Source: Candidatus Omnitrophota bacterium
GTDB lineage: Bacteria; Omnitrophota; Gorgyraeia; Gygaellales; UBA12090
Length of the DNA: 64,000 nt
Direction: 5' to 3'
NCBI GenBank assembly: GCA_030674475.1
Contig: JAUSCZ010000023.1
Location: 87,819-151,818, forward strand
Position 1 is the stretch's first letter. Each line of letters starts with the position of its first letter. Position numbers and translations under genes: made by a program. A model generated the notes under the pieces. It was not told the DNA's origin. It ran no database searches and saw nothing but the letters and a program-made list of their open reading frames with translations. Positions 1,477 through 52,638 of this stretch are shown here, piece by piece.

Positions 1477-4400
1477 ATGCTCCTCAAGCTTAAAAAGCTA
1501 ATATCCCTTTTTATCTCTTTTTGCCTCATTCTTGAGCAGACTACTTTTGCTCAAAGTATAAACCTGTCGCATTACTTTGCCAATCCCGGAAAACCTATTA
1601 TTCAAAGCGATAAGTTTAGGCCCTTACACCTAAGGTATCTGGGCTATGATAACCTGAGCCAGGACTTTAAGCTACTCTTAGACAGGGGAGATACCAAGAA
1701 GAAAGACCTGGAGAACAAGGCCTACATAGAGGAAAACACCCAAACCCTGCTCAAATACTTCTTCATCGGATTAGCCTTACCCAATGAGAAGTTCTGGGTC
1801 AACCTAAGGCCGGATGCCCCGGATAACATCATAGATGATGACTTGGCCCAGACAGATGTAGGCAAGATACTTCTTGAAGCAGACCTCCAACTTAAGAAAG
1901 ACACCGCCGGCTGGACCTCGCCCCAGACCCCGGAAGGCAAAGAATATTGGGATAAACTCTACCAGAAGGCTGGAGAGCTATTCGGAACCGAGAACATCAC
2001 TATTCCCACCCTCACCCGTCCCTGGATAGTCCCGGATGAAATAATAATCAGGGAAGCCCCGGATAATGCCTATATCTATAAGGCCACCTTGAAAGTGATG
2101 TTAGAGCAGGATTATCTCCAGGGGAATCCGCGCCTCGGGAGCGCGCAAGCAGTTTATAACTTTTCAGACCCCCGCTTGAAAGAGCTCAACGAATATTCCA
2201 CCCAGCTAATCAAAGAAAAAATAATTCCTAAGTTGACCTGTGAGGTGAATACTTCCAAGAGATACGCTCCCCTTAGACAAGTCTATTACTCTTTAATCTT
2301 AGCCCAGAATTTTAAAAAGAAGTTTAGCCAATCAACCGGAGAAAACCCCTATGTCAAGCTGATTGACTCTCGTAACCTCTCTAACCTCACCTCAAAAGGA
2401 CCCTGGGATAAGCGGACCTACTTTAGGGAATACCAGAAATCATTCCAGCAAGGCGAATACAACCTCAAAGCCACCGCATCCACAGTCTACGGTCAGACTA
2501 TCAGAAGCTATATGAGCGGGGGTGTAATAGTGGATATTACCTCTTCCAGTGTTAATATAACTAAGGTAGAGGCGAATAGAGAGTTGAAGCTAATAAGTAG
2601 TAGCGCGCTACTGGGGCCGATTAAGGTTCCTGCGCCCCCTGGATTTGAGCATAATGAAGCAGGCATTCTGGTCCCAGTCCCTAAGAAAAATAATAACGAT
2701 AACATATCCAATCAAGAACCTAAAGGGCATGAGCCTACAGAAGATAAAACAAAGCCGGAAATCATACTTCCTAACAGGGTAGATATTGATGCTGTCAGTG
2801 GTAAAGACCCGACACAAGAGCAATTCCATGATAAGTTTCTCCTGGAAAGTATGTCTGTTAAGGATATTCCTTTATTCTTCAAGGACTATTTAAAATCCTT
2901 GCGCCGCTACCATCTAAGACAAAAAGACAGGGATTCAGCTTATTCTTTGGAGTTGTCCGGGAAAGGAATCAGCCTGCCTGTTGGGTATGAACTCCTTTAT
3001 AAAATATTCGTTTCTGGCCAAGAAGAGGACATCCGGGAAGAAATGAAGCATCTTAGCCTTGAGGAAAGAAAGCAATTTGATCAGGCAGTGAAAGATTTAG
3101 AGAATCTGTTTATCTTGAAAGGAGTATTCGAGAAGTTTAATACAAATAATAAAGAAAAGATACAGCTTCAGCTTCTAAAAATGGCATATGCCTTTTTTAA
3201 GAAGTTAAAACAGGCAGGATTTAATTATTCTGAAGAGTTTGCTGAAAGTATATTGGAGGGATTAGAAGGAAATATTAAATTATGGGGGGCAATATACGAT
3301 GAACTGCAGATTCATTTACGCGTTGAGACTGAAAAGGCCGGACTCTCCCACCCGGAGGAATTATCGCGTTATTATTATCGGGAAAAATTCAAGCCTTATC
3401 TTGATGTTTCTAACCAGCTCCTCTCTTTGAACGTTTATTGGGATGCCTCCCGTAAAGCAAGGCTGTTAGATAACCTTGAGGAGTTGGTGGTTGTGGAGGC
3501 AATAGAGGAATTTTCCTGGGTTAAGGATATATTCAGTCAGGAGCAAAACCCCGAATTAAAGCTAAGATTTAAATTGATTGAGCCTTTCTTTGGTAAGGTA
3601 TCTTATGAGCCTCTTGAGCATTTAGGCCCGCAAGAAGCTTTTGGTCTGGAACTGGAAAAGGATGTCACGGATGAAGTCCGCTCAGGTAAACTTTTCAACA
3701 CTTCTAAGGGTTGGGAGGCTTTAAGAAAATACTTAAAAGAATACCAGCTGGACTACAATAATACTATGCATATCCATATAGATAGAGGCCGGGGGGATAT
3801 TAATCAGAGAAACCAAGAGGTCTTATATCTTGTAACTAGTTTTCTGGAAGGATACCTATTGTCGCTTAGTACTTCTCGCGCTATAGATTACCTGATGTTA
3901 GAAGCAGATGCCCAATATGCTTTAAGGTATGATTACCTCTCATATTTATATCAAACTATGAAACACGACAGAATGATCCAGTTTAATAATATGGGCAACA
4001 CCACCATAGAATTTCGTTTTGCCATGCCGCCGTTGAGGCATTTAGCCTTAAGTGAAAAAGCCAGGATAATTTATATCAAGGACCTGATTACTCTCTTTGC
4101 CGCGTTAAAAGAGATAATAATGCATCCTGAAGATAGGCTATCCTTAAAATATCTTGGTCTTCCGGTGCAAGCGGCTCAATATAAACAAAAGATTAATTTT
4201 AACCATTTAAATAGGATATTAGAAGTAGTATTCAGGGGGCATCCCCAAGCTAAGGAATCGTTCCGGAGATTGATGCTATTCAGCCAGCGCAAGAGTATTT
4301 GTTCTTATCGCAATAGCAGCAATAAGCAAATAGAGGAAAATGAGGCAAAGGCTTCTTTGCGGAAAGAGATAAGTAATTTTTACTATCTGCAAGGGTTAGG

Positions 4401-5478
4401 TCTGCTCTATGTTATTCATAGTGAATCAAAAGAAGGCATATCCTTGAATGTAGATGAAGACATAAAGGAAAAGATAGGGCAAGCAAAAACTCGTAAAAGA
4501 GAATATCCTCTTTACCATGAGGTCGCCATGTATTTACTTCGGACAGTAGCCGATGATTATGAAAATGAAGAAACAGTAAGAGTTATCTTGGGGGAAAAAA
4601 TGCAAGCTGATGAATATATAGTGGCCTTAGACAATGCTAGTACTTTTGTTGTTCCCGCTTTAGATAAAATTGGGAATAAGAGAGACTATTTTCTAACATA
4701 TGGTCTTCCGGCTTTAGTTCAAAGAGTCCATTATAACTATGAGATGTTTGGGCTCGCCTTAAAAGCCGCTACCGCCTTTAAAGATAGGGAAGAACGAAGC
4801 TATTTTCTGAACTACAGCATCCTGTTCCTGTGGCGGATGAGCGAAGGAGATGTAGCTAAGTTTAAGAAATTACTTGAGCTTGTTCAGCAGGGAGCCGTTG
4901 CCTTTGAGCCTGGGGTAGAACGAAACAATTTCCTGGAACAGGGAGTCAATAGGCTGGCCTACGGAATCAATTATAACTATGAGATATTTGCGGAGAGGTT
5001 GCTGAACATAAAGAATAAAGAATCTTCTTCAGCGCTCACTACAGAATTAAACAGAGGCGGCATTGATCTTACCGCACTGCCTATCACTACCCAACCACCC
5101 CTAAATCAGCCTTTGACGGCTAATATCTCTATAGCCAGCTTGGCTTTAAATCTCAATATTAACTTGGATAATGAGTTCAGGCAGATTCAGGATATGCTCA
5201 AGGCCGGGATTATGCCTTCAAGCGAAAGGATAAGGGAGTATGCTTTAACATCTTCATCTTTGCAAAAAGAGGAAGGCTATGCTCAGGAGATAGGTAGAAT
5301 ACTTGGCTGTATTGCGGAGATATTGAGGTTAGAAGAGGACAGGGGAGTGTCTACTGCTTTAGCCTTAAAGGAGATGCTCATTTTGTTTGAGTCGGATAAG
5401 CCCGCGCGGGATGTGCAGTTTGCCTTAAGCAAAATTACCGTTATGCCCAGGGAGCCGGCGAAGTATAGTTCGCAATAG
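1477..5478 (+). CDS. giant protein (1333 aa), paralog 1 of a three-member novel family. Hydrophobic N-terminal leader ending FAQS, conserved ~330-aa N module, long helical variable middle, conserved ~180-aa C module (GGIDLTALPITTQ ... LKAGIMPS ... LGCIAEILRLEE)
   Basis: Long uninterrupted ORF. N and C modules align residue-by-residue with the ORFs at 5517 and 52639 (and 8280 for the C module). ATG sits directly 3' of TATACT, so possibly leaderless or nearly so. Confidence 0.7.
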   Translation: MLLKLKKLISLFISFCLILEQTTFAQSINLSHYFANPGKPIIQSDKFRPLHLRYLGYDNLSQDFKLLLDRGDTKKKDLENKAYIEENTQTLLKYFFIGLALPNEKFWVNLRPDAPDNIIDDDLAQTDVGKILLEADLQLKKDTAGWTSPQTPEGKEYWDKLYQKAGELFGTENITIPTLTRPWIVPDEIIIREAPDNAYIYKATLKVMLEQDYLQGNPRLGSAQAVYNFSDPRLKELNEYSTQLIKEKIIPKLTCEVNTSKRYAPLRQVYYSLILAQNFKKKFSQSTGENPYVKLIDSRNLSNLTSKGPWDKRTYFREYQKSFQQGEYNLKATASTVYGQTIRSYMSGGVIVDITSSSVNITKVEANRELKLISSSALLGPIKVPAPPGFEHNEAGILVPVPKKNNNDNISNQEPKGHEPTEDKTKPEIILPNRVDIDAVSGKDPTQEQFHDKFLLESMSVKDIPLFFKDYLKSLRRYHLRQKDRDSAYSLELSGKGISLPVGYELLYKIFVSGQEEDIREEMKHLSLEERKQFDQAVKDLENLFILKGVFEKFNTNNKEKIQLQLLKMAYAFFKKLKQAGFNYSEEFAESILEGLEGNIKLWGAIYDELQIHLRVETEKAGLSHPEELSRYYYREKFKPYLDVSNQLLSLNVYWDASRKARLLDNLEELVVVEAIEEFSWVKDIFSQEQNPELKLRFKLIEPFFGKVSYEPLEHLGPQEAFGLELEKDVTDEVRSGKLFNTSKGWEALRKYLKEYQLDYNNTMHIHIDRGRGDINQRNQEVLYLVTSFLEGYLLSLSTSRAIDYLMLEADAQYALRYDYLSYLYQTMKHDRMIQFNNMGNTTIEFRFAMPPLRHLALSEKARIIYIKDLITLFAALKEIIMHPEDRLSLKYLGLPVQAAQYKQKINFNHLNRILEVVFRGHPQAKESFRRLMLFSQRKSICSYRNSSNKQIEENEAKASLRKEISNFYYLQGLGLLYVIHSESKEGISLNVDEDIKEKIGQAKTRKREYPLYHEVAMYLLRTVADDYENEETVRVILGEKMQADEYIVALDNASTFVVPALDKIGNKRDYFLTYGLPALVQRVHYNYEMFGLALKAATAFKDREERSYFLNYSILFLWRMSEGDVAKFKKLLELVQQGAVAFEPGVERNNFLEQGVNRLAYGINYNYEIFAERLLNIKNKESSSALTTELNRGGIDLTALPITTQPPLNQPLTANISIASLALNLNINLDNEFRQIQDMLKAGIMPSSERIREYALTSSSLQKEEGYAQEIGRILGCIAEILRLEEDRGVSTALALKEMLILFESDKPARDVQFALSKITVMPREPAKYSSQ

Positions 5479-5516
5479 AATTTAAAATCACGAATAGATA
5501 TTGTCCTTAACTAACT

Positions 5517-6419
5517 ATGCCCCCTAAGTCTAAAAAGCTAATCTCTCTTATCCTCTGCTTCTTACTTATCTTCCAGCAGACAGGCTTTGCCCAGACCGTC
5601 AGCCTTAACCTGGCTCACTATCTTAGTCAGGCCTCTTCGCCGGTAATCTCTGATACCTTCCGTCCAATCCACCTGCGCTATATCTCTTACGACAATCTAA
5701 GTAATAATTTTAAACTCCTCTTAGATAAGGGGGACTACTTAAAAGCATCGTCAGGCCGCCAGGATACAAAGTCGTCCGAGCAGGAAGATGATCTTAGTCG
5801 TCAGACGCAAGTTTTGCTGCGATATTTCTTTATCGGCTTAGCCCTGCCCAACAGTGCATTTTGGGTAAACCTTAGACCGGATGCTCCGGATAATATCATT
5901 GATGATGACTTGGCCAAGACCGACATCGGTAAGATACTCTTAGAAGCTGACCTCAACCTTAAGAAAGGCATCTCCAGCTTTACCTCACCCCAAACTCCGG
6001 AAGGCAAGGCCTATTGGGATAAACTTTACCAGAAGGCCGAAGAATTATACGGCACCAGCCAGATAACTATCCCCACCCTAACCCGTCCCTGGATAGTCCC
6101 GGATGAAATAATCTTAAGGGAATCTCCAGACACCAGCGCCTACGTCTACAAAGCCACCCTGAAGGTTATGCTGGAAGAAGACTATCTAGGAAAATCCGAA
6201 ACCCTAAACCCTGAATCCGAAACAAATTCCAATTTAAAAATCCAAAACCAAAAACCCTATGAATTCAAAGACCTAAGATTAAGAGAGCTCAATGAATACT
6301 CTACACAGCTGATCAAAGAGTTGATTATCCCCAAACTTACCCAGGAGATCAACTCTTCCAAGAGATACGCCCCCCCTGAGACAAGTCTATTACTCCTTAA
6401 TCTTAGCCCAGCATTTTAA
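5517..6419 (+). CDS. paralog 2 of the giant-protein family, N-terminal piece truncated by a +1 frameshift in a C7 tract
   Basis: Aligns with residues 1-270 of paralog 1 and paralog 3 up to RYAP. Paralog 1 has gctccccttag where this copy has gcccccccctgag (6370-6376). Confidence 0.55.
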   Translation: MPPKSKKLISLILCFLLIFQQTGFAQTVSLNLAHYLSQASSPVISDTFRPIHLRYISYDNLSNNFKLLLDKGDYLKASSGRQDTKSSEQEDDLSRQTQVLLRYFFIGLALPNSAFWVNLRPDAPDNIIDDDLAKTDIGKILLEADLNLKKGISSFTSPQTPEGKAYWDKLYQKAEELYGTSQITIPTLTRPWIVPDEIILRESPDTSAYVYKATLKVMLEEDYLGKSETLNPESETNSNLKIQNQKPYEFKDLRLRELNEYSTQLIKELIIPKLTQEINSSKRYAPPETSLLLLNLSPAF

Positions 6420-6621
6420 AAATAAGTTTAGAAACGAATCCGGCCCCTATTCAAATCTTATAGATTCAAGAGATCTTACTAATCTCACCTCTCAAGAGCC
6501 CTGGGATAAGCTTACTTATTTCAGGGAATATCAAAAATCTTTTCAAGAGGGCGAATATAATCTTAAAGCCAACCAGCCTACAGCCTATGGCCAGACTATC
6601 CGCAGGTATATAAGCGGGGGA

Positions 6622-8064
6622 GTGGAATTGGGAAATAGCGGTTCTTCAGCTCTGATTATTCCAACGAAAAATAACAGAATTATAGATCATCCTGAGATAT
6701 TAAAGGTTAGTAGTGTTATACTGCCAGGCGACCTTAAGGCGTTCGGTAGGTCAACCAGTAGTTCGGCAGTAAAATATGTGCCAGAGCCTGAAGATTTGCG
6801 GATTAGTGATAATCCTGAAATTAGCGGTATCTGGAGTAAAATGGTTGAGGAGAATCTGAAGTTAGGTGAATTTGCCCGGAAATTAGCCGAGTTTTCCCGT
6901 CGTTACGGCGTTATCAATAAATTCCCTCCGGATATATTAAATGAATTGCGCAAGTTTAGCGAGCTTTATAACATTCCGGATAGTAAAAACAAAGCCGATA
7001 AGGACACCATAGCTTATAATTTAGGTTTTATTACTCTTAATAGCGGTATAAAAGAAGAAGATGATTCGCTGTTAGTCGCGCAATTTAAATTCAACCTCTT
7101 GTTTTTAGTGAGCATGGTTAATGCCGGAATAAAACCAGTTGAACTTTTTAATCAATTTAAAGAGATTGATAAGGATAATTTAAATAAAATAGCTACTGGA
7201 GGAAAACTCAAAGATGGTAACGCGTTTTATGATTATACCTGGAAACCGTTTAAGGATATAAGAAGTATCGCTTGGAGTAGTCTTGGCAAAAAGAAAGTTA
7301 ACGATTTCTTTAAAAAATTTGAGTTTTTATTGAACCTTTTTCAGAAAGAACGTATATCATATCATGAGATTGCGCGCCGCCGCCATGCCGGGGAGAAACC
7401 GTATATGGTGATTTTAAAGCAATACCGCGGACAATTTCCCTCGGACATTATTAATTTTCCGCGGGAATATATTGAGCAGCAAGAACCTATTACCAAATAT
7501 GCCCCTGAAGGAGGGAAAATAGGAGATACAGTAAAAAACCCCGGCGGCTTGCTTTTACCGGGTGAATCTGCGGGAAAGGTAAGAAAATTCACGCTTAACG
7601 GCCTGGAGTTTTACGCGAAACGGGTTAATTCTTTATGGACGCGATATCCTGAGGAAGAAATCATGATTTCACTGAAAGCCGCCCAAAGTTTAAAGAAAGT
7701 CAGCCCTTATTTTGGCGTGCAAGAGTTTATCGGTATCGTTTATGACCAGGGAGCCTTTTACTTATTGTCTCGGGCTATTGTCAGTGAGCAGCCTAGACCA
7801 CCGGAAACAATAAGAGATTTGAATCGATTTAAATTAGACGTAGTAGATAGTATGGTTCGCTTAGGGATGCCGAAGCATGATATCCAAAAGGAGGTTGTTA
7901 ATAAATTTGGAGAGATAACTTGGGTATTTTTAGATTTTGAAACGTTTCCTTATCGTCTTGTCAAAGACGCAGCCAAAGCCCTGGAAGCCCTTAAGAGCAG
8001 AAATAACAAAGAAAAGGCAAATGAGAATACCGTATTACTAATGATAGTGATTCAGACGAGTTAA
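6622..8064 (+). CDS. paralog 2 middle piece; reading frame actually continues from the frameshift site near 6377 (YSLILAQHFKNKF...) through to 8064
   Basis: Translating 6377-6621 in this frame restores the conserved N-module sequence (LIDSRDLTNLTSQEPWDKLTYFREYQKSFQEGEYNLK...GQTIRRYISGG) seen in paralogs 1 and 3. Confidence 0.5.
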   Translation: MELGNSGSSALIIPTKNNRIIDHPEILKVSSVILPGDLKAFGRSTSSSAVKYVPEPEDLRISDNPEISGIWSKMVEENLKLGEFARKLAEFSRRYGVINKFPPDILNELRKFSELYNIPDSKNKADKDTIAYNLGFITLNSGIKEEDDSLLVAQFKFNLLFLVSMVNAGIKPVELFNQFKEIDKDNLNKIATGGKLKDGNAFYDYTWKPFKDIRSIAWSSLGKKKVNDFFKKFEFLLNLFQKERISYHEIARRRHAGEKPYMVILKQYRGQFPSDIINFPREYIEQQEPITKYAPEGGKIGDTVKNPGGLLLPGESAGKVRKFTLNGLEFYAKRVNSLWTRYPEEEIMISLKAAQSLKKVSPYFGVQEFIGIVYDQGAFYLLSRAIVSEQPRPPETIRDLNRFKLDVVDSMVRLGMPKHDIQKEVVNKFGEITWVFLDFETFPYRLVKDAAKALEALKSRNNKEKANENTVLLMIVIQTS

Positions 8065-8279
8065 TCTTTAAAGTTAAACCTAAAGCGGAAATATTAAAAA
8101 AGGCAATTGGGTCGCTTCAGCAAAAAGCAAAAAAAATAGAAGAAGAAGGAAAAGCAATAGAAATAGAAAATGAAAAAGTAAATATTTTTGAAAAATATAC
8201 AGCATTCAAGGATGTAATAGATAAAAATATTTTAAACGATCCTGAATTAATAAAGAAAGAGATAAAAAAATTTGGAGAA

Positions 8280-9068
8280 TTGTTAGATAAGTTTGGCGCG
8301 AAGGTGAAAAACATAGTGAAAAATAACAATGAAGAAAAAGTGTCTTTTTCAGGAATAAGTATTTCTATATTTTACGATTTAGTAGATAAATTGAATAAGG
8401 CCAGGCACTACCCGTATTATATTGATTATGGAGCTAAAGTGAATAGTTTTATAAGGGTGATGGATGCGTATATAAAATTATTGTCAGATATTCAAAACCC
8501 GGGAAAAATTGAGGAAGGATGCGCAGAAAGGATGGATGAGTCAAGGAGTGAGCCGGAATTAACCTATTGGTTATTGAAAGAATATAATAAATTGCCTCAA
8601 GAAAAAGAATCTATGAATTCTTCCCCCGTCTTAGCAAGTGAAATCGGTAGAAATATTTTTGCGCCAATTAAGAAAAAAGGCGGTATTGACCTTACCGCCT
8701 TACCCATAACCACCCAATCCCACTTAAATCAGCCTTTGACGGATAATATACCTATAGCAGGCTCGGCCTTAAATCTCAATCGCGCCCTGAGCGATAGTCA
8801 AAGGGTTAATTTAGATAAGGAGCTTCGGGATATTCAGAATATGCTTAAGGCTGGGATTATGCCTTCAGGTGAAAGAATAAAGGAATATGCCTTAGCCTCT
8901 TCGTCTTTGGGGCCGGAAGACCACAACTGGGAAATTGACCGTCTGCTGGGCTGTATTGCTGATGTTTTTAGATTAGAAGAAGAAAAGGCCAAACCCACCC
9001 CGCAAATCTTAAAAGATGTGCTTATTCTGCTGGAATCGGATAACCCCGCCCCGTTACAAATTCTCTGA
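8280..9068 (+). CDS. paralog 2 C-terminal piece carrying the conserved family C module; separated from the middle piece by a second frame change around 8036-8064
   Basis: GGIDLTALPITTQSHLNQPLTDNIPIAG...LKAGIMPSGERIKEYALASSSL...LGCIADVFRLEEE is about 85% DNA-identical to the 3' end of paralog 1. The frame is open back to 8039. Confidence 0.55.
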   Translation: MLDKFGAKVKNIVKNNNEEKVSFSGISISIFYDLVDKLNKARHYPYYIDYGAKVNSFIRVMDAYIKLLSDIQNPGKIEEGCAERMDESRSEPELTYWLLKEYNKLPQEKESMNSSPVLASEIGRNIFAPIKKKGGIDLTALPITTQSHLNQPLTDNIPIAGSALNLNRALSDSQRVNLDKELRDIQNMLKAGIMPSGERIKEYALASSSLGPEDHNWEIDRLLGCIADVFRLEEEKAKPTPQILKDVLILLESDNPAPLQIL

Positions 9069-9226
9069 AACCGTATTTTATGCTATAAGTCTATTGTAAT
9101 TTATTACCGTATGTGAGGTCTCTGCGGCAAGAAACGGGAATTTGTAACGGGGCCCGCCCAGGAATTACAACTTGCCTTAGCCGGGAAACGGTAAATAATA
9201 TTTCTAATTAACCAACTAATTGCGGG

Positions 9227-9242
9227 TGTGAATTATTTCACA
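9227..9242 (+). promoter_or_regulatory. perfect CRP/FNR-family palindrome TGTGA-N6-TCACA upstream of the nuo promoter
   Basis: tgtgaattatttcaca read directly. Its centre lies 15.5 bp upstream of the -35 hexamer. Confidence 0.45.
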
Positions 9243-9249
9243 GAATCGT

Positions 9250-9278
9250 TTGACAGTAATAGGCTTTTGTGTTAAATT
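9250..9278 (+). promoter_or_regulatory. sigma70-like promoter for the nuo operon (TTGACA-N17-TAAATT)
   Basis: ttgaca at 9250-9255, 17-nt spacer, taaatt at 9273-9278, about 57 nt upstream of the nuoA ATG. Confidence 0.5.
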
Positions 9279-9334
9279 AAACTTTCTTCGCTGGCGGGTG
9301 GTTTTGAAAGGATTAAAACTCAATACAGAGTAAT

Positions 9335-9694
9335 ATGTTAGTTAATACTTATAGTTGTGTACTTTTGTTTTTAGCGGCTTCAACTGTGTTTGTCCTGGCC
9401 TCTTTTGTTACCTCCTGGGTTTTAAGGCCGCATAAGCCCAGCCCCCAGAAGCTCTCTACCTATGAATGCGGTGAACCGACTAAAGGGACCAGCTTTATCC
9501 AGTATAATGTTCGCTATTACTTGTTTGCCTTAGCCTTTGTTATTTTTGACGTGGAGGCGGTGTTTTTACTGCCTTGGGCCGTGGTCTGCAAAGACTTCGG
9601 CCTTTTCGGCTTTATTGAGGCAGTGGTTTTCATCTTTATCCTTTTGGCCGGCTTAGTTTATGCCTGGAAAAAGAAGGTGCTGGAATGGCTCTAA
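9335..9694 (+). CDS. nuoA: NADH-quinone oxidoreductase subunit A
   Basis: 119 aa, three TM helices. Typical NuoA/ND3 length and the YECGEP motif. First gene of a contiguous nuo cluster. Confidence 0.85.
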
Positions 9695-10191
9695 TCAATA
9701 AGCTTCCCATAATTACCGAGAAATTGCCCGGCGGCCAGATTATCCTGGCTTCGGTAGATTTTATCCTGAATTGGTCTAAGGAATCCAGCCTCTGGCCGAT
9801 GAGCTTTGGCCTGGCCTGTTGCGCCATTGAGATGATGGCTGCCGGCGCCGCCCGATATGATATGGACCGTTTTGGGGCCGGGGTTTTTCGGGCTTCTCCC
9901 CGGCAGTGCGACCTGATGATTGTTGCCGGCACCGTTAATGAGAAGATGTCCAAGCGGCTCAGGTTGTTATACGACCAGATGCCTGAACCCAAATATGTGA
10001 TGGCTATGGGCAGCTGCGCTATTTCCGGCGGGCCGTATTATTATGATAGTTATAATGTGGTTAAGGGCGTGGATTTAATTGTTCCGGTGGATGTGCATAT
10101 TCCGGGTTGCCCTCCCCGGCCAGAGGCTTTGCTTTTCGGCCTGATGCAGTTACAGAAAAAAATCAAGAAGGAAAGTATTAAAAATGGCTGA
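9685..10191 (+). CDS. nuoB: NADH-quinone oxidoreductase subunit B (N2 Fe-S cluster subunit)
   Basis: [15 protein letters not shown] and PGCPP cysteine motifs of NuoB/PSST. Confidence 0.9.
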
Positions 10192-10633
10192 TCCGGATTG
10201 GGTTTTGGCCCTGAAAAATAAATTTTCTGATACAGTTGAGGAAGTCTCTATCGGCTGTTTGGTCCTGCCCAAGGAAGATATTTTTAGGGCTATTAATTTC
10301 TTAAAGAGAGAATATGGCTTTGATTATCTGATGAATCTGGCGGCTTTGGATTATAAGGATAGATTGGCCGTGGTTTATAATCTGTATTCGTTTAGGCTTA
10401 AGGGTAAGCTTTGCCTGAAGGTATTCTTGCCTCGGGATAATCCCGCCCTAGAAAGCATAACCGGGATTTACGCGGCGGCTAATTGGCAGGAAAGGGAGGC
10501 CTTTGATTTGATGGGAATAAATTTTACCGGCCATCCGGATTTAAGAAGAATCCTCCTGCCGGATGATTATGCCGGATACCCTTTAAGAAAAGATTACACT
10601 AAAGAAGGCTTTCTTCCCATGCCCGCGGTTTAA
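10184..10633 (+). CDS. nuoC: NADH-quinone oxidoreductase subunit C
   Basis: 149 aa, NuoC/30-kDa subunit-like. Position between nuoB and nuoD; not fused to nuoD. Confidence 0.8.
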
Positions 10634-10634
10634 T

Positions 10635-11741
10635 ATGCCTACCTTAGAGACTCAGCAATTTAGCGTAAGTTTTGGCCCTCAGCACCCTTCCACCCACGGA
10701 GTTTTGCATCTGCAGATGGATTTGGACGGCGAGGTGATTGTCAATTGCACGCCCCATATTGGCTATCTCCACCGCGATTTTGAGAAAATCTGCGAAAATA
10801 GAACTTATACCCAGATTATCCCTTTTACCGACCGCCTGGATTATCTGGGGGCGATGAATAATAACTTTGGATACTGTTTGACGGTAGAGAAACTACTGGG
10901 AGTGGTTATTCCGGAGCGCGCCGAATATATCCGGGTGATTATTGCCGAGTTAAACCGGATTGCCAGCCACTTATTGGCCGTGGGCACCTTTGTCCAGGAC
11001 CTGGGGGCCTTTGGCACGCCTCTTTTATATTGCTTCCGGGAAAGGGAGATGATCCTGGATATCTTTGAGCTGACCTGCGGAGCCCGGCTTACCTATAATT
11101 ACTATCGTCTGGGTGGAGTTTCCGCGGATATCCCGGAGGGGTTTGTCCAAAAGGTCAAGGATTTTATCCGCTATTTCCGGCCAAAGTTAACTGACTATCA
11201 CCGTCTAATTACCAATAATGCCATTTTTCTTATCCGCACCAAAGACATTGGGGTTTTGAGTAAGGAAAAGGCGCTTAACTATGCTATTAGCGGCCCCAGC
11301 CTAAGGGCCAGCGGGATAAAGTTTGATTTAAGAAAGGAAGAGCCTTATTCTATTTATCCGCGTTTTGAATTTGACATTCCCACCAGAAATAGCGGCGACT
11401 GCTGGGATAGATATATTGTCAGGATGGAAGAGATGGAGCAGTCCCTGCGCATAGTGGAACAGGCCATAGATAAGATTCCCGAAGGGGATTTTAGCGCCAA
11501 ACTGCCCAAGATTATCAAGGTGCCTGCCGGTGAGTTGTATTTCCGGACTGAATCTCCCCGCGGGGAGCTGGGTTTCTATCTAATCAGCGATGGCTCGGCT
11601 AAGCCTTATCGCTTGAAATGTCGGGCGCCTTCATTTTCCAATTTAAGTGTTATCGCGGAATTAGTCAAAGGGGTAAAGATAGCCGATGTAATCGCTATCC
11701 TGGGAAGCCTGGATATTGTGTTGGGTGAGATAGACCGATGA
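10635..11741 (+). CDS. nuoD: NADH-quinone oxidoreductase subunit D (49-kDa subunit)
   Basis: 368 aa; NiFe-hydrogenase large-subunit-like fold motifs (HPSTHGVL..., RGELGFYL). Confidence 0.9.
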   Translation: MPTLETQQFSVSFGPQHPSTHGVLHLQMDLDGEVIVNCTPHIGYLHRDFEKICENRTYTQIIPFTDRLDYLGAMNNNFGYCLTVEKLLGVVIPERAEYIRVIIAELNRIASHLLAVGTFVQDLGAFGTPLLYCFREREMILDIFELTCGARLTYNYYRLGGVSADIPEGFVQKVKDFIRYFRPKLTDYHRLITNNAIFLIRTKDIGVLSKEKALNYAISGPSLRASGIKFDLRKEEPYSIYPRFEFDIPTRNSGDCWDRYIVRMEEMEQSLRIVEQAIDKIPEGDFSAKLPKIIKVPAGELYFRTESPRGELGFYLISDGSAKPYRLKCRAPSFSNLSVIAELVKGVKIADVIAILGSLDIVLGEIDR

Positions 11742-12727
11742 TGTTTAAAATATCCCCGGAAAATTGGGCTTTTTTAATTGAGTTTGCTTGGCTTTGCGCC
11801 AAGGCCGCCGGGCTTTTGGGCTTTGTCAGCCTTTCGGTTATGTTTTTAATCTGGTGGGAGAGAAAAGTCAGCGCCCATATCCAGTCGCGCCTGGGGCCGA
11901 TGCGGGTGGGTTGGCATGGCTGTCTGCAGACCATTGCCGACACCATCAAGCTTTTGCTTAAAGAAAATATCGTGGCCAAGGATACGGATAAGGTTTCTTT
12001 TTGGCTGGCTCCGCTGGTGTCTTTTGTGGCGGCTTTTCTGCCTTTCGCGGCTATACCTTTTGCTAAGAATTTGGTGGTTCAGGATTTTGGGTTAGGCTTG
12101 CTCTATATCTTCGCGGTGAGCAGTCTGGGAGTAATCGGGGTGTTTATGGCCGGTTGGGGCTCCGGGAATAAATATTCTTTGCTGGGGGCAATGCGGGCCT
12201 CGGCCCAGATTATCAGCTATGAGATTCCTCTGGTGCTTTCGGTCTTAAGTATTGTGATGCTCACCGGAAGCCTGAATATGACTAAGATTGTGGAGGCTCA
12301 AGGGCAGGTGTGGTTTGCCTTTAGCCAGCCGATAGCCTTTTTGATTTATTTCATTTCCGCCTTAGCTGAGACCAACCGGGCCCCTTTTGACATCTCTGAG
12401 GCTGAGTCTGAACTGGTGGCCGGATTTCACACCGAATACAGCGGGATGAAATTTTCCATGTTTTTCCTGGCTGAATATACCAATATGTTTGTTGTTTCCG
12501 CCATAGCCGCCACGCTTTTTTTGGGCGGCTGGCAGGGGCCGTTTTTACCGGGAATATTCTGGTTTCTGGCTAAGGTCTATTTTCTTATATTTTTAATGAT
12601 GTGGATACGTTGGACCTTTCCCCGTTTTAGGGTTGATCAGCTGATGAACTTTGCCTGGAAATTTTTAGTGCCGTTGGCTTTCCTGAATATCTTAGCCACC
12701 GCGTTATTCTTAGTACTAAAAAAATAA
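11738..12727 (+). CDS. nuoH: NADH-quinone oxidoreductase subunit H
   Basis: 329-aa polytopic membrane protein; NuoH/ND1 signatures (ERKVSAHIQSRLGP, EAESELVAGFHTEYSG). Confidence 0.9.
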   Translation: MMFKISPENWAFLIEFAWLCAKAAGLLGFVSLSVMFLIWWERKVSAHIQSRLGPMRVGWHGCLQTIADTIKLLLKENIVAKDTDKVSFWLAPLVSFVAAFLPFAAIPFAKNLVVQDFGLGLLYIFAVSSLGVIGVFMAGWGSGNKYSLLGAMRASAQIISYEIPLVLSVLSIVMLTGSLNMTKIVEAQGQVWFAFSQPIAFLIYFISALAETNRAPFDISEAESELVAGFHTEYSGMKFSMFFLAEYTNMFVVSAIAATLFLGGWQGPFLPGIFWFLAKVYFLIFLMMWIRWTFPRFRVDQLMNFAWKFLVPLAFLNILATALFLVLKK

Positions 12728-12729
12728 AA

Positions 12730-13149
12730 ATGATCAAGAGAATAAAAAGAATATTTTCTGATAGTTTCAGCCTGCTCCAGGGTTTAGCGGTTACCGCCAA
12801 GTATTTATTTAGCCCGGCAGTTACCCTGCAATATCCCACACAACGCTGGACGCCTCCGGAGCGTTACCGGGGGAGGGTGGCTTTGCGGCCGAAGAAATGT
12901 ATCTCTTGCCAGATGTGCGTCCGGGCCTGTCCGAATTATTCCTTAGAGGTGAAGTTTAGCCTGGGGGAAGATAAGAAGAGAAAATTGAGTGGCTTTATAT
13001 ATCATTTAGATACCTGCTTGTTCTGCGGCTTATGCGTTGAACCCTGCCCTACCGCGGCGATATTTATGAACCAGGAGTATGAGCTCGCGGTGTATGAGCG
13101 CAAGGAACTAGTGATGGACTTGACTGAGGCGGATAAAAATGTGGAGTAA
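12730..13149 (+). CDS. nuoI: NADH-quinone oxidoreductase subunit I (2x[4Fe-4S] ferredoxin-like)
   Basis: Two CxxCxxCxxxCP motifs (CISCQMCVRACP, CLFCGLCVEPCP). Confidence 0.9.
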   Translation: MIKRIKRIFSDSFSLLQGLAVTAKYLFSPAVTLQYPTQRWTPPERYRGRVALRPKKCISCQMCVRACPNYSLEVKFSLGEDKKRKLSGFIYHLDTCLFCGLCVEPCPTAAIFMNQEYELAVYERKELVMDLTEADKNVE

Positions 13150-13639
13150 TTTTCTTAGCGCGTCAATTTTTTATCTGATAGCTATAGTCGGCATTATTTT
13201 CGCCATACTCTCGGTTACCTTGAAGAATATGTTTCATAGCGCCCTGGCCTTAATCGTGATGCTTCTGGGTGTAGCGGTGGTCTATATCTATTTAGACGCG
13301 GAGTTTCTGGCCCTGGTCCAGATTTTGATTTATGTGGGGGCGATTATGACCCTGGTTATCTTTGCCATAATGCTTACCGCGGAAATCTATAATAAAAACA
13401 TTAAGCGCCACAACCAGCAGAAGCTGATTTCCCTTATCATTGCCTCCAGTATGGCCGGTTTCCTAATCTTTGTCTTGAGCCGCTTTAAGGCCCAGGCAGG
13501 AGTAAGTTTTTTTGAACCGCTGACTTTAGCCATGATTGGAAAAGAACTATTAACTAAGTATGTGTTGCCTTTTGAGCTGATTTCAATAATCCTGCTGGCG
13601 GCCCTGGTGGGCTCGGCGGCTATAAGCAAGAAAGAATGA
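13139..13639 (+). CDS. nuoJ: NADH-quinone oxidoreductase subunit J
   Basis: 166-aa membrane protein, ND6-like; position in the operon. Confidence 0.8.
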   Translation: MWSNFLSASIFYLIAIVGIIFAILSVTLKNMFHSALALIVMLLGVAVVYIYLDAEFLALVQILIYVGAIMTLVIFAIMLTAEIYNKNIKRHNQQKLISLIIASSMAGFLIFVLSRFKAQAGVSFFEPLTLAMIGKELLTKYVLPFELISIILLAALVGSAAISKKE

Positions 13640-13944
13640 TACCTTTAAGCCATTATCTGATTTTATCGGCCATATTATTTTCTATCGGCCTTTACGGGGT
13701 CTTTACCCGTCGTAGCGCGATAGGGATTTTATTGTCTTTGGAGATTATGCTCAATGCCGTAAATATCAATTTTGTGGCCTTTGCTAAATTTATGGCTCCG
13801 CAAGCCCTCGCCGGGCAGATTTTTGTCATCTTTACTATTGGCGTAGCCGCGGCTTCCACCGTGGTGGGCCTGGCTATAATCGTGGCTATCTACCATAATT
13901 ATAAGACTATTTTTGTGGATGAGATAGATGTGATGAAATGGTAA
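13636..13944 (+). CDS. nuoK: NADH-quinone oxidoreductase subunit K
   Basis: 102 aa, three TM helices, ND4L-like; position in the operon. Confidence 0.85.
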   Translation: MIPLSHYLILSAILFSIGLYGVFTRRSAIGILLSLEIMLNAVNINFVAFAKFMAPQALAGQIFVIFTIGVAAASTVVGLAIIVAIYHNYKTIFVDEIDVMKW

Positions 13945-15857
13945 ACTACGCGTATCTAATTCCTCTGTTTCCTTTGCTGGCTTTCGCGGTTAATATCTTC
14001 TGGGGCCGCAGGCTAAAGGCTAAAAGCGCGCCGGTGGCTATTCTGGCTATGCTGGGCTCTTTGGTTATTTCCTGCCTAATCCTTAAAGAAGTTATTACCG
14101 GGAAAACCCTGGAGCAGAGCGTAGAGTGGTTTAAAGTTGGCCGGTATTCTTTTGAGGCCGGCTTTTTGGTTGACCCCTTGAGCGCGATGATGTTGTGTGT
14201 GGTTACCCTGGTGGGGCTTTTGGTTGAGGTATATTCCATCGGCTATATGCGCGGGGATAAGCGCTATCATCTTTTCTTTGCCTATGTATCCTTATTTATC
14301 TTTTCAATGTTGGGCCTGGTTTTATCCAACAATCTTATCCAGACGTATGTATTTTGGGAGTTGGTGGGGGTGTGTTCGTATCTGTTGATTAGCTTCTGGT
14401 TTGAGAAGAAATCCGCCGCCGACGCCGGGAAAAAGGCCTTTATCACTAACCGGATAGGAGATGCCGGATTTTTCTTAGGCTTGTCTACCCTGTTTTATTA
14501 TTTAGGCACGGCTAACTTTACTCAAATCAGCCAAAGATTAATGCATCATCCTGAGGGCTTAAGCCAGGGTATTTTGGCCCTGGCGGCAGTGCTGATTTTC
14601 TGCGGGGCAGTGGGTAAATCGGCCCAGTTTCCCCTGCATGTCTGGCTGCCGGACGCGATGGAGGGCCCTACCCCGGTAAGCGCTTTGATTCACGCCGCCA
14701 CCATGGTTGCCGCCGGAGTGTATCTGGTTGCCCGAAGCTACGCGGTCTTTGCCGCGGGGCATCTTTCCTTAGAAGTAGTTTCTTATATCGGAATCATCAC
14801 TTCGTTTATGGCCGGCTCAATCGCCCTGGTGCAGACCGATATCAAGCGCATCCTGGCTTATTCCACGGTCAGCCAATTAGGCTATATGATGATAGCTTTG
14901 GGGGTGGGTGGTTATAGCGCCGGGGTGTTTCATTTGATGACCCACGCCTTTTTTAAGGCCCTGCTTTTCCTGTGCGCCGGAAGCGTAATTCATGCTTGCG
15001 GGGTTCAGGATATCCGCCAGATGGGCGGTTTATTCGGGAAGATGAAGGTAACCGCGACTACCTGCCTGATTGGCTGTCTGGCTATTTCCGGGGTTCCGCC
15101 CTTAAGCGGCTTCTGGAGCAAGGATGAGATTTTATTATCGGTGTATAACAGCGGAAACCGGGTGCTTTACGGCCTGACTTTAATTGTGGCTTTTATGACC
15201 GCCTTTTATATGTTCCGGCTTTTGTTTTTGACATTTTTCGGAAAACCCAGGGAGAAACTGCATATCCATAAACCGGCCCCAACCATGGATTGGCCGTTGA
15301 TTATTTTAGCGGTATTCAGTATATTTTCCGGATTTGTCGGCTCACCTTTGATGGGCCATGCCTTTTCCCGTTTTATCTATTTTCATCCTGAGCATACTGA
15401 ACCGAATTATATGGTGATGATTTCTTCTGTTATCGTAGGTTTGGCCGGCATATCTTTGGCTTGGGTATTTTATATTTTATCTCCGGCACTACCCGCGGCC
15501 CTGGCTAAAAATTTCCAGCCGGTTTATAATCTTTTGCTGAATAAATACTGGATTGATGAGATTTACGACAGGTTTATCATTCAGCCGTTTTTACGCCTGA
15601 CCAAGTTTGCTTTCTCCTTTGACCGCTATCTGATTGACGGGGCAGTGAATCTTACCGGAACATCCTGCGTGGCGGTCAGCCGGGTTAAGGGCTGGATTGA
15701 TAAATATATCGTTGACGGTCTGGTTAACCTGATTGCCCTGGTGGTGGGGGCATTGGGTGAGGTTTTCCGCCGCTTACAGACCGGACTTATTCAAAACTAT
15801 ATCCTGTTGATTTTTACCGGGGTGGTGGTAATTGTTTTCTTGTTGAGATTTATTTAA
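13938..15857 (+). CDS. nuoL: NADH-quinone oxidoreductase subunit L (antiporter-like)
   Basis: 639 aa; Mrp/ND5 antiporter-like motifs (WLPDAMEGPTPVSALIHAATMV). Confidence 0.9.
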   Translation: MVNYAYLIPLFPLLAFAVNIFWGRRLKAKSAPVAILAMLGSLVISCLILKEVITGKTLEQSVEWFKVGRYSFEAGFLVDPLSAMMLCVVTLVGLLVEVYSIGYMRGDKRYHLFFAYVSLFIFSMLGLVLSNNLIQTYVFWELVGVCSYLLISFWFEKKSAADAGKKAFITNRIGDAGFFLGLSTLFYYLGTANFTQISQRLMHHPEGLSQGILALAAVLIFCGAVGKSAQFPLHVWLPDAMEGPTPVSALIHAATMVAAGVYLVARSYAVFAAGHLSLEVVSYIGIITSFMAGSIALVQTDIKRILAYSTVSQLGYMMIALGVGGYSAGVFHLMTHAFFKALLFLCAGSVIHACGVQDIRQMGGLFGKMKVTATTCLIGCLAISGVPPLSGFWSKDEILLSVYNSGNRVLYGLTLIVAFMTAFYMFRLLFLTFFGKPREKLHIHKPAPTMDWPLIILAVFSIFSGFVGSPLMGHAFSRFIYFHPEHTEPNYMVMISSVIVGLAGISLAWVFYILSPALPAALAKNFQPVYNLLLNKYWIDEIYDRFIIQPFLRLTKFAFSFDRYLIDGAVNLTGTSCVAVSRVKGWIDKYIVDGLVNLIALVVGALGEVFRRLQTGLIQNYILLIFTGVVVIVFLLRFI

Positions 15858-15929
15858 ATGAAAGTTTTCCCTTGCGTAAACGCTCGTAAATTTCTGCGAA
15901 ATTTACTTCGCACGCTACGGGATTAATTC

Positions 15930-15982
15930 GCGCATAAACTTATGCCTTCCTGCCTACCGGCAGGCAGGCATAAGTTTAGCGC
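15930..15982 (+). repeat. long imperfect palindrome / stem-loop in the nuoL-nuoM intergenic gap; its core TATGCC-TYCCTGCC-TACCGGCAGG resembles the palindrome inside the heptamer-array element at 59918-60024
   Basis: gcgcataaacttatgcc...ggcataagtttagcgc arms of about 15 bp with a central CCTACCGGCAGG, read directly. Confidence 0.5.
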
Positions 15983-16001
15983 TCATTAAGGAGGCTTAGC
16001 A

Positions 16002-17483
16002 ATGTTAGGTTTTCCACTTTTAAGTTCAGCTGTATTCTTGCCGATTTTGGGGATTTTGATTTTGTTTTTTATCCCTAAAAATAAAACCGCTCTAATCCGG
16101 GTAACCAGCGGCATAATTACTTTTCTTACCCTGATTGTTTCGCTGGTAATCTTTACTCACTTTAATAGCAATGACCCCGGCCTGCAATTGCAGGAACGCT
16201 TGAGCTGGATACCCCAGGTGAATATCAATTATCATTTGGGAGTTGACGGATTAAGCTATTCTATGGTTTTCCTGACCGCGCTTTTGTGTTTTCTGGCCTG
16301 CATTGCCTCTAATTCCATCAAGGAGAGAATTAAGGAGTATTATATCTTCTTTCTGCTCTTAGAAACCGGGATGATGGGGACATTCCTGGCTTTGGATCTG
16401 TTTTTGTTTTATGTCTTCTGGGAGATAACCCTGGTTCCGATGTATTTCTTAATCGGTATCTGGGGCGGGCCGAGAAAGGAATACGCGGCCATAAAGTTTT
16501 TCCTGTATACCTTAGCCGGCAGTGTCTTTATGCTCCTGGGTATTTTAGCTTTGTATTTTACCAGCACTCCCCATACCTTTAATATTTTAGAGTTGACCCA
16601 GCAGTCTAAGTTTTTCGCCCAGGCTTTTCAGAACATTGTCTTTTTGGCCTTGTTTTTCGGCTTCGCGGTTAAGGTGCCGGTGTTTCCTTTTCATACCTGG
16701 CTGCCGGATGCCCATGTGGAGGCCCCGACTCCGATAAGCGTGCTTTTGGCCGGGGTTTTGCTGAAGATGGGCGCGTATGGTTTTTTCAGGATAAGCTATC
16801 CTATATTACCCCAGGCCGCCAATTATTTCGGTTTCGCCATCGCGGTGCTGGCGGTAATCAATATCGTGTATGGGGCTTTTGTAGCCATGGCCCAGACGGA
16901 TTTCAAGAAGATGGTGGCCTATTCCAGCGTCAGCCATATGGGCTTTGTAATGCTGGGCCTGGCGGCCTTAAGCCCGGTGGGCTTTAGCGGCGCGGCAATG
17001 CAGATGTTTAACCACGGGATCATCACCGGGGCTATGTTTTTATTGGTGGGAGTTCTTTATGACCGCTCGCATACCCGGGAGATGGGCGCTTTTGGAGGCC
17101 TACGGGTAAACTTGCCGGTTTTCTCGGCAGTGTTGATTTTCTTTTCCATGGCTTCTTTGGGGCTTCCCGGTTTAAGCGGTTTTATCGGTGAGTTTTTATC
17201 TTTGCTGGGCGGCTTTAAGGCTTTTAAGCTGCTCACCGCCATCTCGGTCCTGGGCATTGTGATTACTGCCGGGTATATCCTGGTGATGATTCAAAAGGTT
17301 CTCTTGGGGCCGATGAATGACAAATGGAAGGGCCTGAGCGAAATTAGCTTTCGGGAATTGGTAACCGTGGTGCCTTTGTTAGTTATTGTCTTGGTTTTAG
17401 GGGTTTATCCCAAGCTGGCCCTGGATATTATCAATCCCGCTTTAAATCTTATTCTGAATAATATGGGAGTGGTTTTACCTTGA
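16002..17483 (+). CDS. nuoM: NADH-quinone oxidoreductase subunit M (antiporter-like)
   Basis: 493 aa, ND4-like (WLPDAHVEAPTPISVLLAGVLLKMG). Confidence 0.9.
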   Translation: MLGFPLLSSAVFLPILGILILFFIPKNKTALIRVTSGIITFLTLIVSLVIFTHFNSNDPGLQLQERLSWIPQVNINYHLGVDGLSYSMVFLTALLCFLACIASNSIKERIKEYYIFFLLLETGMMGTFLALDLFLFYVFWEITLVPMYFLIGIWGGPRKEYAAIKFFLYTLAGSVFMLLGILALYFTSTPHTFNILELTQQSKFFAQAFQNIVFLALFFGFAVKVPVFPFHTWLPDAHVEAPTPISVLLAGVLLKMGAYGFFRISYPILPQAANYFGFAIAVLAVINIVYGAFVAMAQTDFKKMVAYSSVSHMGFVMLGLAALSPVGFSGAAMQMFNHGIITGAMFLLVGVLYDRSHTREMGAFGGLRVNLPVFSAVLIFFSMASLGLPGLSGFIGEFLSLLGGFKAFKLLTAISVLGIVITAGYILVMIQKVLLGPMNDKWKGLSEISFRELVTVVPLLVIVLVLGVYPKLALDIINPALNLILNNMGVVLP

Positions 17484-18919
17484 TGAATTTATTGCTTGAT
17501 TTAAAATTTATCCAGCCGGAGATTATCTTAATTATTGCCTCTATCCTGGTATTGATGCTGGATTTTATATTCAAATCCAAGCGCCTGTTGGCCTATTTTT
17601 CCCTGTTTTCTTTATTTTCGGCTTTGCTGGTTTTGGGCCGGGGAACTCTATCGGCTCACAGCCTGTTTTCCGGGATGTTGGTCAGCGACCCCCTGGCTTT
17701 GTTTTTACGGATACTCTCGGTTTTTATTACGGCAATGGTAATTTTGCTCTCCATTGATTATCAGGAGATAGGCCCGGGAATGAGGTCAGAGCTTTATTCC
17801 CTCTTATTGATGGCGGCTTCGGCAATGATGTTTCTTTCCGCTGCCAACAATCTCTTGATGATTTATTTGGGGATTGAATTCATCAGCCTGATTTCTTATG
17901 TCCTGGCCGCCTACTGGAAAGGGAATCTTAAATCCAGCGAGGCCGGACTTAAATATTTTCTTTTTGGTACCGCCTGCTCCATCACTATGCTTTATGGTAT
18001 GTCAATTATCTACGGCATAACCGGCACCCTGGACTTACCGCAGATGAACCAGGCCTTGTTCAATAATCAATTTAGCCCTATAGTCATTTACATTGCTATC
18101 TTGATGGTCTCGGTGGGCCTGGCCTTTAAAGTGGCGATGGTGCCCTTTCATTTCTGGTGCCCGGATGTCTACGAGGGGGCTCCTACGCCGGTAACCGCCT
18201 TTTTCTCCGTGGGCCCTAAGCTGTTGGGATTCGCGGTGTTATTAAGATTTTTGCTCGGAGGCAGTGCTTTATTCTATCAGCATTGGATGCATCTTTTGGG
18301 GATTCTGGCCATCGCCACTATGGTGGTAGGAAATCTGACCGCCCTGGCCCAGACTAATATTAAGAGATTGCTGGCCTATTCTTCAATTGCCCACGCCGGC
18401 TATGCCTTAATTGGCTTAGTGGTCAATACCACTGCCGGATACATTAGCCTGTTTATTTATTTATCAACCTACATCGTGATGAATTTGGGGGCCTTTGCCG
18501 TGGTAATCGCGGTCTCGAACCAGACCAAAAGCGATGAGATCAAGGATTACGCCGGTTTATCGGTCCATTCCCCTTATTTAGCCGCCCTGTTTAGTCTGTT
18601 TCTGATTTCTTTAGCCGGCATCCCGCCCCTGGCCGGCTTTATCGGCAAGTTTTATATCTTTAGCTCGGCCATTAAAGAAGGTTTTCTCTACTTAGCGATT
18701 GCCGCGGTCCTCAACAGCGTCATTGCCGCCTACTACTATTTTAATATCATCCGCGTAATGTATTTAGTTCCCCCTTGCGCCTCAGCCGTAAAAATCAAGC
18801 CCTCCCCAGCCTTAAATCTGGCCCTAGTCTTAAGCTTACTCCTGGTTTTAGCTATGGGCTTGTATCCCAAACCGGTTATAGACTGGGTCAGTGCCGCCCT
18901 AGTCTTTCCCTCGCCCTAA
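17480..18919 (+). CDS. nuoN: NADH-quinone oxidoreductase subunit N (antiporter-like)
   Basis: 479 aa, ND2-like (FHFWCPDVYEGAPTPVTAFF). Confidence 0.9.
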   Translation: MMNLLLDLKFIQPEIILIIASILVLMLDFIFKSKRLLAYFSLFSLFSALLVLGRGTLSAHSLFSGMLVSDPLALFLRILSVFITAMVILLSIDYQEIGPGMRSELYSLLLMAASAMMFLSAANNLLMIYLGIEFISLISYVLAAYWKGNLKSSEAGLKYFLFGTACSITMLYGMSIIYGITGTLDLPQMNQALFNNQFSPIVIYIAILMVSVGLAFKVAMVPFHFWCPDVYEGAPTPVTAFFSVGPKLLGFAVLLRFLLGGSALFYQHWMHLLGILAIATMVVGNLTALAQTNIKRLLAYSSIAHAGYALIGLVVNTTAGYISLFIYLSTYIVMNLGAFAVVIAVSNQTKSDEIKDYAGLSVHSPYLAALFSLFLISLAGIPPLAGFIGKFYIFSSAIKEGFLYLAIAAVLNSVIAAYYYFNIIRVMYLVPPCASAVKIKPSPALNLALVLSLLLVLAMGLYPKPVIDWVSAALVFPSP

Positions 18920-19435: not shown

Positions 19436-19465
19436 ACACCTTGGCCTATCGGAAGGCCAAGGTGT
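19436..19465 (+). promoter_or_regulatory. perfect 11-bp-arm inverted repeat (acaccttggcc-tatcggaa-ggccaaggtgt) immediately upstream of the hsdM ribosome-binding site
   Basis: Read directly; followed by AAGGAG at 19476-19481 and GTG at 19489. Confidence 0.4.
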
Positions 19466-52527: not shown

Positions 52528-52638
52528 TTAGTTTATAGCTGATAGTTGATAGTTTAGAGCAAAAGATTAGCGAACTAAATAGAATTTATGTTTGTTTTTT
52601 TGCTATCAACTATCCGCTATCAACTATCAACCAAATAT
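52528..52638 (+). mobile_element. heptamer-array element copy B with terminal inverted heptamer arrays, inserted exactly between the ancestral leader (…CTTTAGGT) and the start codon of giant paralog 3
   Basis: Left array agtttat-agctgat-agttgat-agtttag, right array (reverse complement) gctatca-actatcc-gctatca-actatca. The flanking 52464-52524 aligns with 1424-1476 upstream of paralog 1, where the ATG follows immediately. Confidence 0.65.

Follow-up and report, generated by a model that had tools for sequence, protein, structure and literature searches.

Is the frameshift in one of the paralogous genes of a Candidatus Omnitrophota MAG a reversible switch, the mark of a dying gene, or an error of assembly? 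The question arises from a stretch of 64,000 nt (the window), part of a 153,877-bp contig whose genes bear the locus tags Q7J72_*, in which the gene termed paralog 2 sits between paralog 1 and nuoA and carries a C7 homopolymer. The original prediction offered three readings of this tract: a slipped-strand phase-variation switch in a surface-protein-like family, an early step of pseudogenisation, or a homopolymer assembly error. Early pseudogenisation fits best, in view of two lesions, intact orthologues and agreement between assemblies. We put at roughly 0.75 the probability that paralog 2 was recently inactivated by two independent indels and is an ordinary young frameshift pseudogene.

Paralog 2 is one gene in three reading-frame pieces

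The features concerned are the following.

1477..5478, + strand: paralog 1, intact, 1333 aa (Q7J72_05135, MDO8748482.1)
5517..9068, + strand: paralog 2, in origin a single gene of about 1182 codons, in three reading-frame pieces (from tblastn and the orthologue L002, described below)
5517..6419, + strand: piece 1, the leader peptide, the first 286 residues of the N domain and a 14-residue out-of-frame tail (PETSLLLLNLSPAF); in GenBank the hypothetical protein Q7J72_05140 (MDO8748483.1, 300 aa)
6370..6376, + strand: C7 homopolymer, site of the +1 insertion (sequence read as tacg CCCCCCC tgagac)
6417..6419, + strand: premature TAA in frame 0 (from the sequence)
6377..8064, + strand: piece 2, in the +1 frame, the remaining N domain and a middle domain specific to paralog 2, open for about 560 codons; in GenBank Q7J72_05145 (MDO8748484.1, 480 aa), given as 6622-8064 with a GTG start
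8034..8037, + strand: second lesion, net -1 (placed by homology with the intact orthologue L002)
8025..9068, + strand: piece 3, in frame 0, module X and the conserved C-terminal domain (GGIDLTALPITTQ..., about 8667-9050); in GenBank Q7J72_05150 (MDO8748485.1, 250 aa), given as 8316-9068
9335..18919, + strand: nuoA-N operon, directly downstream of paralog 2, the synteny anchor for orthologues
52588..56247, + strand: paralog 3, intact, 1219 aa, annotated 'radical SAM protein'

Across the C7, frame 0 of paralog 2 reads ...KRYAPPETSLLLLNLSPAF and runs into the TAA at 6417-6419, an out-of-frame stop 14 codons past the tract, with which the ORF from 5517 ends (...INSSKRYAPPETSLLLLNLSPAF). Removal of one C gives YAPLRQVYYSLILAQHFKNKF, regains the family motif KRYAPLRQVYYSLILAQ and leaves a frame of 848 codons that ends at 8062-8064; the +1 frame past the tract, LRQVYYSLILAQHFKNKF..., is open up to the TAA at the same position. 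A +1 frameshift within the C7, recovery of the conserved frame by deletion of one C, and family sequence in the +1 frame had all been predicted, and all three are borne out. This site (site 1) lies within KRYAxLRQVYYSLILAQW, the most conserved motif of the family's N domain, and in a C6 state it would read GCC CCC CTG, Ala-Pro-Leu within KRYAPLRQVYYSL. Paralog 1 has TAC GCT CCC CTT AGA CAA GTC here (TAC to AGA at about 2266-2280) and paralog 3 has TAC GCT CCC CTA AGA CAA GTC (TAC to AGA at about 53464-53478); of the CTT that had been read in both, that of paralog 1 stands, the Leu codon of paralog 3 being CTA.

By tblastn, the reconstructed protein is made up of 5517-6374 in frame 0, 6331-8034 in frame +1 and 8025-9065 in frame 0. 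Piece 2 shares 57-73% identity with its counterparts in the orthologues L002, L003 and L004; for the C-terminal domain of piece 3, identity is 58% with paralog 1 and 43% with paralog 3. Q7J72_05140, Q7J72_05145 and Q7J72_05150 are fragments of one disrupted gene. Entries such as these inflate protein-family counts, which makes the case useful for annotation. The three fragments are present in the protein collection used here, yet lie outside the best 120 matches to the reconstructed protein, so that absence from that list is not evidence of absence.

Paralog 3 has a B12-binding and radical SAM module as its middle, and its annotated start (52588-52640) adds 17 residues (MFVFLLSTIRYQLSTKY) ahead of the family-typical leader MPLRLTKFLSLF; the real start is probably the second Met.

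A second frame change in the linker beyond the middle domain

A second change of frame near 8036-8064, which the original prediction also called for, is indeed required, for the C-terminal domain is back in frame 0. That frame is open again after the TGA at 8022-8024 and runs to 9068; the sequence by itself permits the lesion to lie anywhere in 8025-8061, and a codon alignment with L002 narrows it to about 8034-8037. Where L002 has AAT ATC GTT TCT TCG GCA ACT GAT GGC GAT TCA, the window has AAT ACC GTA, then TT, then ACT AAT GAT AGT GAT TCA: only two bases are left between GTA and ACT, a net loss of one. The lesion falls within a low-complexity, Ser/Asn/Asp-rich linker (GTATTACT) that forms a module junction and is rich in indels in alignment A1, and the sequence at about 8034-8037 holds no repeat or homopolymer.

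The consequences for the C6 state follow from this. Lying outside any repeat, the second lesion offers no high-frequency reversion, and the product of a C6 (or C9) allele, of 848-849 aa, ends at 8064 without module X and the C-terminal domain. The claim that a change from C7 to C6 gives an intact gene must be divided accordingly: the family frame is restored, but the product stops at the second frameshift. Such a protein of 848 aa would be atypical of the family, in which 115 of the 120 best-matching members have the C-terminal domain.

The Ser/Asn/Asp-rich linker that follows the middle domain is found at about 8000-8060 in the window, at 7270-7350 in L002, at 2400-2460 in L003 and at about 700-830 in L006. 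The modules that lie past it differ from one orthologue to the next, with none in L006, X in the window, X and Y in L002, and another, containing HExxH, in L003; the sequences suggest that gain, loss or swapping of modules at this linker may be frequent.

Orthologues of paralog 2 are read in a single frame

Four loci with a matching middle domain (L002, L003, L004 and L006) served as orthologues of paralog 2. In the Hainich aquifer MAG CAKKRH010000001 (L002), one intact ORF of 1449 codons (4672-9021), directly upstream of nuoA, covers both lesion sites in one frame. On a Rifle groundwater contig (L006), whose nuo genes are 92% identical to those of the window in nucleotide sequence, the middle domain, a Ser-rich linker of 25 aa and the C domain all lie in a single frame. 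L003 (73% amino acid identity) and L004 (60%) are in frame over site 1. The codons at that site are GCT CCA CTA in L002, L003 and L001 (an assembly considered below) and GCC CCT CTT in L004; none of the four orthologues and neither paralog has the C7 tract, so the C run is specific to the copy of paralog 2 found here. L002 does hold two C6 runs, both harmless, from which it follows that C6 runs are ordinary coding sequence. Comparison with orthologous loci in related genomes, which the original prediction had proposed as a check, thus gave a clear result: the syntenic orthologues upstream of nuoA are single-frame and free of the C run.

One further broken copy was considered and discarded. L001 (ENA ERZ1286166 contig_28, 2.15 Mb, a near-complete Omnitrophota genome) is L002's organism in a long-read-like assembly, from whose gene table the Pfam names of the nuo genes were taken. 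Its orthologue of paralog 2 is broken into four frames, but nuoD, nuoH and a P-type ATPase gene are split there too, among many others; its indel noise looks uncorrected, and its proteins (for example P0001) accordingly look like truncated artefacts. L003, a Hainich H43 contig of coverage 3 and by protein identity the closest of the orthologues, has an in-frame stop at about nt 1390 (SSSAI-stop-YVS), where a linker joins the N domain to the middle one; this stop may mark another decaying copy or a low-coverage error.

Probable recent inactivation by two indels

Both lesions are present in the consensus of the reads, as two assemblers agree. Logan contig L008 (SRR13727527_245894, 2,923 nt) matches window positions 6083-9005 at 100%, without gaps, and carries the C7 and the -1 lesion together on one unbroken contig; the MAG and Logan contigs probably derive from the same reads, and are in that case independent assemblies, not independent sequencing experiments. 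At the level of assembly, then, the lesions are real, and they disrupt a frame that is intact in orthologues (L002, L006) at the equivalent genomic position.

The ratio dN/dS is 0.21-0.24 between paralog 2 and its orthologues, not above the 0.29 between intact orthologues, and none of the three pieces contains a further stop; a ratio of about 0.2 without added stops suggests that inactivation was recent. Relaxed selection on paralog 2 would agree with the finding of two lesions in this one gene of 3.5 kb and of none in the rest of the window. A relative-rate test (paralog 2 had 71 unique changes, L003 had 31) was dropped as a measure of such relaxation, because dS makes L002 and L003 sisters. 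A switch or a sequencing error would equally leave all pieces open and well conserved but for the two indels.

The course of events that best accommodates these observations would begin with a synonymous change of GCT to GCC, by which Ala-Pro-Leu came to be encoded by GCC-CCC-CTG, a slippage-prone C6. Replication slippage would then have added one C, turning C6 into C7, with the effect that translation leaves its frame amid the most conserved motif of the family and would stop 14 codons on. A separate net loss of one base would have struck the non-repetitive, indel-prone linker before or after this; we infer, rather than observe, the order of the two. The paralog 2 locus would now be non-functional, and the C7 is probably a mutational scar and not a selected switch. 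The mechanism, homopolymer slippage followed by or following a second indel, is routine; the case adds that a conserved Ala-Pro-Leu motif can conceal a latent C6 run that predisposes to frameshifts.

Phase variation

Slipped-strand phase variation would have the C tract toggle a secreted member of the family within the population, C6 being ON and C7 OFF, and we consider this unlikely. The tract does lie within the 5' quarter of the gene, in a family with a leader peptide and many paralogs; the frame is restored by C6 and by C9, and C5 and C8 lead to an immediate TGA. At 7 nt it is just long enough to count as a potentially phase-variable poly-G/C tract by the most permissive cut-off in print, at least 7 in Campylobacter phasomes (PMC6321876), but is below the 9-10 nt typical of working tracts, and mutability at the cut-off may be <1e-5 (PMC6321876). 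An intragenic tract of barely sufficient length is therefore what this reading has; it has neither conservation of the tract, which is missing from the four orthologues and two paralogs, nor a complete ORF in the ON state, which at C6 meets the second, non-repeat frameshift and loses the near-universal C domain. Nor are G/C tracts enriched in the 64 kb. The C7 at 6370-6376 is the sole G/C run of at least 7 in the window, shuffled sequences leading one to expect about 0.5 such runs of C (1 observed) and 2.5 of G (0 observed); with about 0.5 expected, the C7 by itself is not statistically unusual.

Alternative tract lengths were sought in other data. The Logan contig, which is the only other copy, is unbroken at the tract and likewise has C7. 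No C5, C6, C8 or C9 product was present in a collection of 15 billion proteins, and in JGI metagenome contigs the pattern CCAAGAGATACG-N{3,12}-TGAGACAAGTCTA had 0 matches; each of these is a weak negative. A minority of the population may still have C6. The phase-variation switch of the original prediction thus finds little support.

A variant of this reading, that the tract is a newly born contingency switch toggling one member of the leader-peptide family in a possibly host-dependent Omnitrophota lineage, appears very improbable to us. The linker lesion would then be a hitch-hiking polymorphism, or would be tolerated, for example through a functional 848-aa product. Were it true, it would be the first evidence of SSR phase variation in Omnitrophota; a full-text literature search found no paper in which phase variation and Omnitrophota occur together.

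Agreement of assemblies

That the gene is in truth unbroken, at least one of its two indels being a sequencing or assembly artefact, we judge distinctly unlikely. Homopolymers are the classic site of indel errors, and the related long-read-like assembly L001 has many split genes, this orthologue among them. Against this stands the agreement, base for base, of two assemblies over the 2,923 nt of L008, which span both sites, and again over window positions 8996-11007, to which Logan contig L007 (SRR13727527) is 100% identical. The second lesion, besides, is outside any homopolymer. The other window genes that were checked bear no trace of such errors: 20 of them give near-complete to complete Pfam domain matches and none appears split, the seven nuo ORFs visible in L002 (nuoA-J) equal the window's in length, and no gene is disrupted by any of the window's 40 A/T runs of length at least 7. 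The Logan match over both lesions and the intactness of the other genes checked together make an assembler artefact, or an assembly prone to indels in general, unlikely; an error specific to the sequencing chemistry is a slight possibility. The homopolymer assembly error that had been proposed is made improbable by an independent assembly 100% identical at both sites and 64 kb otherwise intact. Misassembly induced by repeats was also rejected, the words common to the paralogs around site 1 being at most 17 nt long, too short to tangle a de Bruijn graph.

Gene fission and recoding

Fission of the gene, with Q7J72_05140, _05145 and _05150 expressed separately and at least one of them functional (for example a leaderless middle domain from TTG 6628), is in our estimate very unlikely. 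All three pieces are still open, and a Shine-Dalgarno (SD)-like GGGGGA, formed by conserved Gly-Gly codons, lies 6 nt upstream of TTG 6628, where gene callers choose starts. This GGGGGA is nevertheless a by-product of invariant SGG residues; piece 1 breaks off within the most conserved motif of the N domain, piece 3 is without a start codon over its first 85 codons, and no orthologue is split in the same way.

Recoding, which would yield a full-length protein through a -1 shift near 8035 combined with either transcriptional slippage or a programmed +1 ribosomal frameshift on CCC-CCC-C, is scarcely credible: CCC-C is a known shift-prone context for tRNA-Pro and the +1 and -1 shifts would cancel, but site 1 has no stop, hungry codon or upstream SD-like stimulator, 8025-8061 contains no slippery heptamer, and the feature is missing from all orthologues and paralogs. 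Programmed frameshifting was rejected on the absence of downstream RNA structure at both sites (z +1.45 and -0.49) and of the heptamer at site 2. Slippage of tRNA-Pro on CCC-C might give a leaky +1 shift at a level of at most about 1%.

The protein family

The gene that these two indels have probably inactivated belongs to a family, specific to Omnitrophota and examined here in window paralogs 1-3 and proteins P0003-P0224, whose members begin with a leader peptide and a conserved N domain (about 350 aa) and, after a variable middle, close with a conserved C-terminal domain (about 120 aa). The MAG encodes at least 8 paralogs, namely the three of the window and five outside it: Q7J72_02515, _02570, _03780, _05740 and an L11-methyltransferase-like protein. 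A search with the N domain returned at least 7,267 representatives of clusters at 50% identity (4,774 with E <=1e-30), in proteins of up to 7,391 aa; the domain always occupies residues of about 45-340 and is 54-81% identical across aligned and best-scoring members. The hydrophobic leader (..LSLLLCFLLIFEQSGFAQ) and N domain are present in all 120 best matches. The C-terminal domain (GGIDxxxLPIxTQ...CIADILRxEEE...LES) is present in about 96% of the same 120 and is nearly always at the extreme C terminus. Between them lie unrelated middles: radical SAM with B12-binding modules, class I methyltransferases, kinases, HEAT repeats, M23 peptidase, GNAT, phosphoglucomutase, glucose-6-phosphate isomerase and others.

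Neither Pfam nor NCBIfam has a model over the N or C domain, a PDB sequence search with the two domains gave no match, and Foldseek comparison of their models with the PDB gave nothing significant. AlphaFold models the N domain with confidence as helices and two beta hairpins (pLDDT 85-93 over residues 45-330), and likewise the C domain as a bundle of five helices (pLDDT 84-88). The description of the family as surface-protein-like is not established by these data: the leader resembles a signal peptide, but the middles are enzymes of cytoplasmic type, and the conserved domains match no known fold. The Omnitrophota literature that was searched yielded no description of the family. Its thousands of Omnitrophota proteins, in which two conserved modules enclose unrelated enzymes, are of more interest than the frameshift.

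Other features of the window

Beyond the nuo operon lies a type I restriction-modification island (19411-31150), with HsdM at 19411-21495, HsdS at 24230-25474 and HsdR at 27620-31150; a Fic protein, a KAP-family P-loop NTPase and an M78-peptidase/DUF4411 pair break it up. At the C terminus of HsdR sits an S24 (LexA-like) peptidase domain, which is an unusual fusion. All gene-like ORFs of at least 100 aa in the 64 kb (about 50) are on the + strand, a complete strand bias, and cumulative GC skew climbs almost monotonically over positions 1-64000.

Comparison with known systems

With +1 frameshifting of the prfB/RF2 type and with tRNA-Pro slippage, site 1 has in common the +1 direction and a Pro CCC-C context; unlike the prfB/RF2 type it has no in-frame stop, SD stimulator or conservation, and it needs an opposite second shift at a place without a slippery site.

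The family as a whole invites comparison with polymorphic toxins, Rhs and CDI systems, with which it shares many paralogs per genome, a conserved N-terminal module (54-81% identity), swapping of the modules that follow, and junctions rich in indels. It differs from them in being conserved at both ends and variable in the middle, and in having there, instead of toxins, ordinary enzyme folds (radical SAM, methyltransferases, kinases, sugar-phosphate enzymes); immunity genes were not seen, and no homology to polymorphic toxins, Rhs or CDI was found.

SSR contingency loci of Campylobacter, Neisseria and Haemophilus (PhasomeIt, PMC6321876) resemble paralog 2 in having an intragenic poly-C that sets the frame, at the minimal cut-off of 7 in this instance, in a multi-copy leader-peptide family. 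The tract of paralog 2, unlike theirs, is at the bottom of the length range (typically 9-10), unconserved and unenriched, and the second, non-repeat frameshift leaves the gene without a full-length ON state.

The closest likeness is to pseudogenes made by homopolymer slippage. The uncultivated Omnitrophota MAG that is its host and the undescribed family to which it belongs set paralog 2 apart from other examples, in nothing essential; it shares with them the insertion of one base in a short G/C run, a second and independent lesion, intact orthologues, untouched neighbours, and a gene that the annotation pipeline splits into several 'hypothetical proteins'.
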